Positions 1,262-1,419 of a DNA stretch of 15,966 nt are shown here, piece by piece (the stretch's first letter is position 1; each line of letters begins with the position of its first letter). The DNA is from a virus (Duplodnaviria; Heunggongvirae; Uroviricota; Caudoviricetes), in the IMG/VR virus record IMGVR_UViG_2872185964_000002; one strand, written 5' to 3'. The notes beneath the pieces were generated by a model. The model had not been told where the DNA came from. It ran no database searches and worked only from the letters and a program-made list of their open reading frames with translations. A program made the translations under genes and the position numbers.

Positions 1262-1370
1262 ATGGTGCAGGAGATTCACTAGGGGTAGTGCAAATAATTC
1301 ACTATCTGGTGCAGCAAATGCACCAGGTAGTGCAGGAGTTGCACCAAGGGGTAGTGCAGGAGATTCACCC
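1262..1370 (+). repeat. five direct 19-21 bp iteron-like repeats (consensus about GGTAGTGCAGGAGATTCAC) inside the replication gene; candidate origin
   Basis: GTGCA cores at 1265, 1289, 1309, 1330, 1354 (spacing 20-24 bp); the arrangement parallels the iterons inside lambda O. Confidence 0.55.
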
Positions 1371-1371
1371 A

Positions 1372-1419
1372 GAACCAGTCACTCTTTTGAACCAGTCAAA
1401 GAACCAGTCAATGAACCAA
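1372..1419 (+). repeat. three and a half tandem copies of GAACCAGTCA (12-17 bp spacing) just downstream of the iterons
   Basis: GAACCAGTCA at 1372, 1389, 1401 and GAACCAA at 1413; encodes the EPVx linker repeat. Confidence 0.5.

Follow-up and report, generated by a model that had tools for sequence, protein, structure and literature searches.

A candidate replication origin with two repeat classes inside the initiator gene of SfV-type lambdoid phages

We analyzed a stretch of 15,966 nucleotides (nt) from the virus record IMGVR_UViG_2872185964_000002 (Caudoviricetes; the whole stretch is hereafter referred to as the window), in which positions 1263-1418 comprise five palindromic repeats (iterons) followed by a second class of short direct repeats, all of them within a disrupted gene for a phage replication initiator. 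Judging from the comparison with related loci, this segment is probably the replication origin of lambdoid phages of the SfV/ST64B/CPS-53 type, situated where the initiator gene codes for a disordered linker between the N- and C-terminal domains. The array in the window itself is a relic in a decayed prophage, because the initiator gene is frameshifted and the prophage is truncated by insertion sequences (IS).

The repeats and the initiator gene in the window

The pattern GTGCA-N5-TKCAC matched the plus strand five times, at positions 1265, 1288, 1309, 1330, and 1354, and nowhere else within the 15,966 nt, while 0.12 matches were expected by chance and none of the 200 shuffled sequences reached this count. 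With two bases added on each side, the cores become 19-base pair (bp) imperfect palindromes, T(A/G)GTGCA-N5-T(T/G)CAC(C/T)(A/C), of which the unit dyad is TAGTGCA-N5-TGCACTA. The array at 1263-1370 comprises iteron 1 (TGGTGCAGGAGATTCACTA, 1263-1281), which is kept in the relatives, iteron 2 (TAGTGCAAATAATTCACTA, 1286-1304), iteron 3 (TGGTGCAGCAAATGCACCA, 1307-1325; position 1319 is G in the window and T in the relatives), iteron 4 (TAGTGCAGGAGTTGCACCA, 1328-1346), and iteron 5 (TAGTGCAGGAGATTCACCC, 1352-1370), which abuts the family-wide conserved element (see below). The cores are spaced by 23/21/21/24 nt in the window and by 24/21/21/24 nt in the intact relatives. The initial annotation had claimed five repeats of about 19 bp phased by about 21 bp at 1262-1370, and both the pattern counts and the shuffled sequences bear this out. 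In the intact frame of the SfV class, each iteron unit is read as G(S)AGDS(L/P) and all the spacings are divisible by three; thus, the window alone cannot rule out a repetitive peptide, and the relatives are needed.

The second repeat class starts one base past the last iteron. GAACCAGTCA was found as exact plus-strand copies at 1372-1381, 1389-1398, and 1401-1410, followed by a partial copy, GAACCA, at 1413-1418, so that the successive copies are 17, 12, and 12 nt apart. When one mismatch at most was allowed, there were four matches in the window against 1.0 expected, the three exact ones being clustered. These copies agree with the 3.5 copies initially placed at 1372-1419; the claim that this class encodes an EPVx peptide holds for copies 2-4 (copy 2 is E-P-V-K in the intact frame) but not for copy 1, which is R-T-S-H in the true frame. 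Copy 3 belongs to a 12-nt unit, the number of which varies among the SfV-class contigs (one fewer in L072, L126, and L100; one more in L058). The family-wide conserved element, AGAACCAGTCAC TCTTTT GAACCAGTCA AA GAACC, corresponds to 1371-1405. No further copy of either class was detected in the window outside 1263-1418, and a tandem-repeat scan of the window for other repeat clusters yielded only short, low-scoring arrays.

As to the suggestion in the initial annotation that the second class takes the place of the usual AT-rich unwinding element, a nearest-neighbour stability scan gave the segment containing the element (1372-1420; 59% AT) a 40-bp duplex dG of approximately -51 kcal/mol, compared with the window mean of -56 kcal/mol. 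The least stable duplex near the array was the left flank (1215-1262, the low-stability stretch extending to 1265), with 68-70% AT and a dG of -45 kcal/mol. No sigma-70 promoter-like site was found in 650-1900, the conserved element included; a terminator scan of the same interval gave one minus-strand terminator-like site at chance level (1208-1223). The Rfam search yielded no family match, the sole hit being mir-875 at chance level (18.9 bits, the gathering score being 84). The signal for a single-strand hairpin was limited (z = -2.1) and is accounted for by the iteron palindromes, while the element itself folds into no notable single-strand structure. By-eye comparison revealed no convincing match to the DnaA box TTATNCACA or the IHF site WATCAANNNNTTR.

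The intact initiator gene is 819 nt long, encodes 272 amino acids (aa), and is present unbroken in hundreds of Escherichia coli genomes. The intact E. coli protein is 100% identical to orf39 of phage SfV, annotated as 'replication protein,' and 88% identical to sb42 of Salmonella phage ST64B, and the gene was also found in Stx2c/Stx2a phages, PhiR63_1, and other inducible phages; SfV, ST64B, the Stx2c phages, and PhiR63_1 are functional phages. HTH_36 (PF13730; aa 17-67, E = 1.8e-11) was the only Pfam match above the curated cut-off, with DnaD_N, B-block_TFIIIC, and HTH_20 falling below it, and PHROGs assigned the protein to phrog_270, 'replication initiation protein' (E = 1.7e-88). The database contains 5,428 relatives of this HTH_36/phrog_270 initiator. 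Homology to lambda O (Phage_rep_O, PF04492) was rejected, as Pfam gave HTH_36 and no Phage_rep_O match. The initiator is analogous, not homologous, to lambda O.

In the AlphaFold2 model, residues 1-88 were predicted with a per-residue confidence score (pLDDT) of 74-93 and an H-H-H-H-beta-hairpin topology, i.e., a winged helix; the region coding for this putative DNA-binding domain (1000-1263, plus strand) is unbroken in the window. Residues 91-157, spanning the whole repeat-encoded region, had a pLDDT below 50, and the iterons encode aa 88-140. Foldseek retrieved generic winged-helix matches only (E of about 0.01-0.08), which included the N-terminal domains of DnaD (2v79) and staphylococcal RepA (4pql/4pt7) as well as members of the MarR, ArsR, and PadR families. 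No sequence relative with a solved structure was found at E < 0.1.

Conservation of the two repeat classes among relatives

Three sets of relatives were compared, namely ten phages from tblastn, 120 viral contigs retrieved through the conserved element, and 80 genomic loci retrieved by an alignment of the N-terminal domain (N-domain) only, the last being unbiased as to the repeats. All of the approximately 200 related loci carried a repeat array at the same place, in the region coding for the disordered linker, with a unit sequence specific to the lineage. The two-part layout recurs in these loci; a comparison with the origins of related prophages had been proposed in the initial annotation.

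At least nine iteron classes were recognized among the relatives (e.g., GTGCAGGAGATTCAC, GTGAAAAATCTGCAC, GTGACACAGAGTCAC, GTGTAAAAATTACAC, GGGCAGGAGCTGCCC, ATGCCANCNGATGGCAC, and TGTAGGCCCAGAAAGCAC), and all of those inspected by eye have dyad symmetry. The density of short dyads was 4.7 per 100 nt for the arrays, compared with 1.0 per 100 nt for the DNA encoding the N- and C-domains of the same genes (Wilcoxon p of about 1e-9). The arrays hold 3-5 units, and unit spacings of 21, 22, 23, and 24 nt were found in 55, 25, 22, and 54 intervals, respectively (mean 22.6 nt). Approximately 30% of the spacings are therefore not multiples of three, so that adjacent units of an intact gene can be translated in different frames, e.g., in L137 and at the Shewanella loci. 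Because a peptide repeat can neither yield palindromic DNA nor outlast changes of frame, we regard the first repeat class as DNA elements. Peptide periodicity as the sole cause was ruled out by the frame changes, the 22- and 23-nt spacings, and the codon-position entropies (see below); the relatives thus do not show mere codon periodicity lacking conservation at the DNA level.

The iteron classes appeared to be matched to the putative recognition helix of the initiator. Helices with [KRE]R[STA][VA] were accompanied by TAGTGnA..TnCAC iterons in 73 of 74 loci, a count that ignores phylogeny, and those with [KR][ST][STA]V by iterons of the GCC/GGC type. Within the latter type, DRSTV was paired with TGTAGGC units, SKSAV with (T/C)(A/G)TGCC..GGCAC, SRSTV with GGGGCAGGAGCTGCC units (GGGGCAGGAGCTGCCC iterons), and SKTSV with GGTATAGCAGGAGATGGCA. 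P0062 and P0072, two recombinants of natural origin, have the SfV C-terminal domain (C-domain) fused to a foreign N-domain that is accompanied by its own iterons, the pattern predicted for a cognate pair of protein and site. In the near-identical E. coli initiators P0001, P0003, P0016, P0028, and P0042 (302, 294, 272, 250, and 242 aa), the number of iteron units was 9, 8, 5, 2, and 1, respectively. This variation shows that the array expands and contracts rapidly in natural populations; the exact length of the linker hence matters little to the protein, as is the case for lambda O.

The conserved element, AGAACCAGTCAC-N6-GAACCAGTCA, covers approximately 27-40 bp, and its nucleotide sequence is kept in bacteria ranging from E. 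coli to Pseudomonas, Vibrio, and Shewanella. In 10 of the 10 tblastn phages, the last iteron is followed by C-AGA-ACC-AGT-CAC-TCT-TTT-GAA-CCA-GTC-A, and this stretch contained no synonymous and about seven single-base non-synonymous changes across the ten. The 27-mer core (AGAACCAGTCACTCTTTTGAACCAGTC) was found with five substitutions at most, and mostly three at most, in 73 of the 80 loci retrieved by the N-domain, the other seven being indel variants; the 73 loci span Enterobacterales, the GC-rich Pseudomonas, Marinomonas, Shewanella, Aeromonas, Xenorhabdus, Halomonadaceae, and Cardiobacteriaceae. Over the nine codons of the element in 57 non-redundant loci, the entropies at codon positions 1, 2, and 3 were 0.32, 0.24, and 0.17 bits, whereas the third positions at 28 near-invariant residues of the N-domain averaged 1.40 bits. 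The translation is R-T-S-H-S-F-E-P-V in most members, H-P-E-P-V-T-L-E-P-V in Shewanella and Parashewanella, R-T-S-H-R-T-S-Q-L-E-P-V in Aliivibrio, and N-Q-S...T-S in mEp013. Altogether, it is the DNA of the element that is conserved, whatever the reading frame, and this signal is shared by hundreds of related phages.

In the family-wide core, the distance between the two 10-mers is 17 nt (12-14 nt among the variants), and GAACC comes 12 nt later; the full third and partial fourth copies of the SfV class vary by slippage. No extra copy of the element or the 10-mer was found elsewhere in 1.48 Mb of the related loci. In the family-wide AT profile, the element was relatively the AT-richest part, 10-15 points above its surroundings, and a smaller peak was seen at -140 to -110 relative to it. 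At the corresponding position, initiators that are more distant carry short direct repeats of another sequence, in two copies each, namely AGAACCGTAAT in PotUPM1, TCCTAACAnTAn in Vibrio phage D96a, and CATAAACCAT in Vibrio phage 1.042.O; the layout with two repeat classes is thus general. Vibrio phages D67 and D96a share the host genus and the C-domain but differ in the N-domain, the iterons, and the second-class repeats. By this contrast, the element belongs to the module of the origin and the N-domain, which argues weakly against a host factor or the C-domain as its target. The tendency of 10-mer copies 1 and 2 to change in concert was weak (Fisher p = 0.035, uncorrected). Both 10-mers are altered together in the Shewanella profunda locus L195 (GAATCTATCAA...GAATCTATCAA), and several other loci carry a C-to-T change in both. 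Such joint changes could mean that the copies must match each other, or could be due to gene conversion.

Proposed origin function, alternatives, and known systems

We propose the following course of initiation for SfV-type phages. The five palindromic iterons, spaced at about two helical turns, would each be occupied by dimers of the N-terminal winged helix of the initiator, and a wrapped or bent complex of protein and DNA would form, as with lambda O. At the adjacent conserved direct repeats (AGAACCAGTCA, 2-4 copies), the duplex would first open or be kept open, and the host DnaB helicase would be delivered there. These repeats are probably recognized by a surface that all initiators of the family share. 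The variable C-domain would couple the complex to the helicase or loader of each phage; the SfV-type phages encode neither and would use those of the host. Transcription of the early-right operon through the initiator gene would activate the origin, as in lambda. In the opening region of iteron plasmids, the exact sequence of the 13-mers matters and the initiator can bind single strands (PMC5043065, citing Wegrzyn 2014). By analogy, we infer that the element may be an opening or helicase-entry site with sequence-specific recognition. We tentatively extend this idea to the family: AGAACCAGTCAC-N6-GAACCAGTCA(-NN-GAACC) is possibly a common origin core across the initiators of gammaproteobacterial phages, in which the iterons would select the initiator and the invariant core would set opening and helicase loading. 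Recognition of such a core would take place at the DNA level, perhaps in single-stranded form, through a conserved initiator surface or through the helicase machinery of the host.

Among the alternatives, the one that survives best concerns the second class alone. AGAACCAGTCAC...GAACCAGTCA may be a recombination joint between the N- and C-modules, or the code for a docking peptide (…SFEPVxEP…), and not a part of the origin. The recombinants P0062 and P0072 are indeed joined exactly at the element, the C-domains beyond it are wholly different, and E-P-V is kept even in the frame-shifted variants of Shewanella. Nevertheless, we consider this alternative improbable. A peptide motif does not need third codon positions that are near-invariant even in Pseudomonas, a genus that disfavours the codons AGA, AGT, TCT, and CCA, and Shewanella has HPEPVTL in place of RTSHS with the DNA unchanged. 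Selection for recombinability alone would be weak, and the pair of D67 and D96a, with the same C-domain, suggests that the element moves with the origin module.

It is less probable still that the palindromes are sites at which the initiator or another regulator exerts autoregulation, copy control, or exclusion (as operator, roadblock, or by titration or handcuffing) and that the origin lies elsewhere. Dimers of winged-helix proteins on palindromes are typical of repressors, in line with the Foldseek matches to MarR, ArsR, and PadR; iteron plasmids use the same sites for both tasks (PMC5043065); and the truncated product in the window retains the DNA-binding domain. On the other hand, the position, phasing, and number of the units match those of the origins of lambda, P22, and phage L in O or gene 18 (bioRxiv 10.1101/2020.10.05.325894), the family is annotated as replication initiators, some of its members adjoin DnaB-like helicase genes, and the tandem-repeat scan revealed no alternative repeat cluster in the window. 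The idea that the repeats are a low-complexity peptide linker (G-S-A-G-D-S-P and EPVx units) arising from slippage and devoid of any cis-acting role is highly improbable, as the triplet spacing in the SfV class, the slippage in unit number, and the predicted disorder that favour it are set against units that are palindromic in the classes inspected, identical DNA units in different frames, the reading of 10-mer copy 1 as RTSH and copies 2-3 as EPV, and synonymous positions of the element more conserved than the non-synonymous ones, and it is largely refuted by the frame and codon-position data.

Several points weigh against the origin as we propose it. No P/DnaC-like or other helicase-loader gene follows the initiator, the next genes being the PerC-like yfdN, then dam and rusA; the SfV-type phages thus differ from lambda (O-P) and P22 (18-12), in which such a gene stands beside the initiator. 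The N-domain and the iterons are physically linked, so that their co-variation is partly inheritance and the statistic is inflated. As 10-mer copies 2-4 always encode E-P-V, the roles of the peptide and the DNA are not fully separable. The element in the window is just 59% AT, and the least stable DNA is on the opposite side of the array; the short second-class repeats are conserved in sequence but moderately AT-rich. The initiator copy in the window is broken, and function would need a helper. Our literature search, which did not cover the SfV genome paper, retrieved no experiment that demonstrates binding, unwinding, or origin activity in a member of the family, and nothing relevant on the 10-mer, the peptide, or the origins of SfV, ST64B, or SfIV.

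NZ_CP148393.1 (L219) is a 44.6-kb circular record that was deposited as a plasmid and represents a complete lambdoid phage with integrase, tail, and lysis genes, in which this initiator is the only recognizable replication gene. The case weakly supports the sufficiency of the initiator module together with host factors. L219 also carries yfdP, yfdQ, and yfdR. YfdR was reported to bind DnaA (PMC4776307) and could tie this phage group to the control of host initiation.

One of the closest parallels is the origin of lambda (ori-lambda) inside gene O, to which the initial annotation had likened the segment. Lambda, P22, and phage L have type-specific iterons inside the initiator gene (bioRxiv 10.1101/2020.10.05.325894; PMC5043065). 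As in O and in gene 18 of P22 and phage L, the iterons of the SfV type are dyads of about 19 bp, about two turns apart, in the region coding for an inter-domain linker; they are specific to the phage type and matched to the N-terminal DNA-binding domain; and a distinct segment lies directly downstream of the last iteron, in a gene that belongs to the early-right operon. By contrast, the SfV-type initiator has no sequence relation to lambda O, no P- or gp12-like partner gene is present, and the downstream segment, which is a 40-bp AT-rich and strand-asymmetric stretch in lambda, is a pair or triplet of 10-mers with 50-59% AT that is conserved across genera. Thus, the likeness holds for the dyads, the phasing, the linker position, the co-variation with the recognition helix, and the conservation at the DNA level, but not for the gene, which is not an O homologue, nor for the state of this copy.

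In plasmids of the RepA_N type, the origin repeats lie in the middle of the rep gene, between a DnaD-like winged-helix N-domain that binds them and a variable, host-specific C-domain. The SfV-type initiators resemble these replicons (e.g., pSK41 RepA; PDB 4pql/4pt7) in the central position of the origin, with a weak likeness in the fold of the N-domain. They differ in being from phages of Gammaproteobacteria instead of plasmids of Firmicutes and in having no Pfam sequence match to the RepA_N family, and we know of no conserved second element in RepA_N replicons. At oriL of Bacillus phage SPP1, G38P binds direct repeats in its own gene 38 beside an easily melted segment. The initiator sites are thus within the initiator gene there as well, whereas G38P is unrelated in sequence and the genes for a separate loader and helicase (G39P and G40P) adjoin it. 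Finally, two repeat classes, namely double-stranded initiator sites and the short direct repeats of the opening region, lie side by side also at RK2 oriV (TrfA) and oriC (DnaA); the 13-mers of these origins are strongly AT-rich and non-coding, while the SfV-type repeats are coding, moderately AT-rich, and spaced by 12-17 nt.

The decayed prophage and implications for related phages

The disrupted initiator gene (the homologue of SfV orf39 and ST64B sb42) occupies 1000-1835 on the plus strand and comprises an open reading frame (ORF) at 1000-1422 and the true downstream frame at 1389/1449-1835. In the alignment, the run of G at 1282-1285 has four bases in the window and five in the intact relatives, and the addition of one G restores the full-length product. 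Past this site, the repeats are out of the true frame in the window ORF, which ends with the stop codon at 1420-1422; the true frame extends to about 1820/1835. The statement in the initial annotation that the repeats are all inside a coding sequence is therefore correct in that the ORF at 1000-1422 spans them, but this ORF is a frameshifted remnant. A second 1-nt loss, of a T, was found near 1816. In the relatives, the stop codon TGA of the initiator overlaps the start of yfdN within GGGGGTGATCATGA; the window has GGGGGGATTATGA at the corresponding positions (1810-1822) and thus lacks the normal stop. Only one assembly (CP026872.1) has a record of exactly this truncated product. The G5 runs between the iterons look frameshift-prone, the copy in the window having GGGG for GGGGG. 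By eye, the same shortened run was seen in an unrelated locus of Pseudomonas bharatica CSV86 (L148), in which the ORF is cut to 133 aa and the element is out of frame.

Upstream of the initiator, a small ORF at 779-1003 (plus strand; homologue of SfV orf38, phrog_1153) overlaps the initiator start codon with its stop (ATGA). The 3' part of an IS3-family transposase gene with rve domains (1-654, plus strand) abuts the 3' end of a rha-like gene (660-781) and replaces the immunity and early region of the phage, together with the promoter region. In CP026872.1, the remnant adjoins two methyltransferase genes, apparently cmoA/cmoB, and the int-cI-cro part of the prophage is therefore gone. The yfdN-like gene of the PerC family (1819-2313, plus strand) is directly downstream of the initiator. 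The phage dam gene (2306-2958) is split into overlapping ORFs at 2306-2626 and 2623-2958 by another frameshift, and the ORF at 3134-3721 is a fusion of the RusA C-terminal end with a KilA-N domain, implying a deletion or frameshift between the two genes. A DNA methylase of 349 aa (N6_N4_Mtase; 6126-7175) lies in the late-regulatory region, and the best E. coli matches around it were Stx2-phage regions with stx2A and a SASA-family esterase. Further downstream, at 10023-11060, 11683-12573, and 13995-15966 (all on the minus strand), we found another two transposase genes of the IS3 family and one IS66-family element, which comprises a transposase and accessory ORFs, and the right half of the window is mostly IS. 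The replication system in the window is inactive, with nothing but the cis sites and the isolated DNA-binding domain surviving, and in this genome, the feature is merely the fossil of a decayed prophage.

For the intact relatives, the segment would be an unannotated example of a well-known kind of origin; no origin feature is annotated over the initiator gene in the database records of SfV and ST64B. It thus provides a concrete candidate origin for the replication modules of SfV, ST64B, CPS-53, and several Stx phages. The specificity of the initiator, i.e., the iterons and the recognition helix, appears to be inherited as one module, which bears on the replication compatibility of co-resident prophages including Shiga-toxin phages. 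What most merits pursuit is that the second repeat class is conserved in its nucleotides, independently of frame, over a very large family of phage initiators; the element is a clean natural example of overlapping protein and DNA codes. The cross-genus element could help locate origins in many gammaproteobacterial prophages. If our tentative proposal of a common core is true, the invariant core, being kept under any overlying reading frame, would mark phage origins in thousands of prophages and would illustrate with unusual clarity how a cis-signal can override codon choice in nature.

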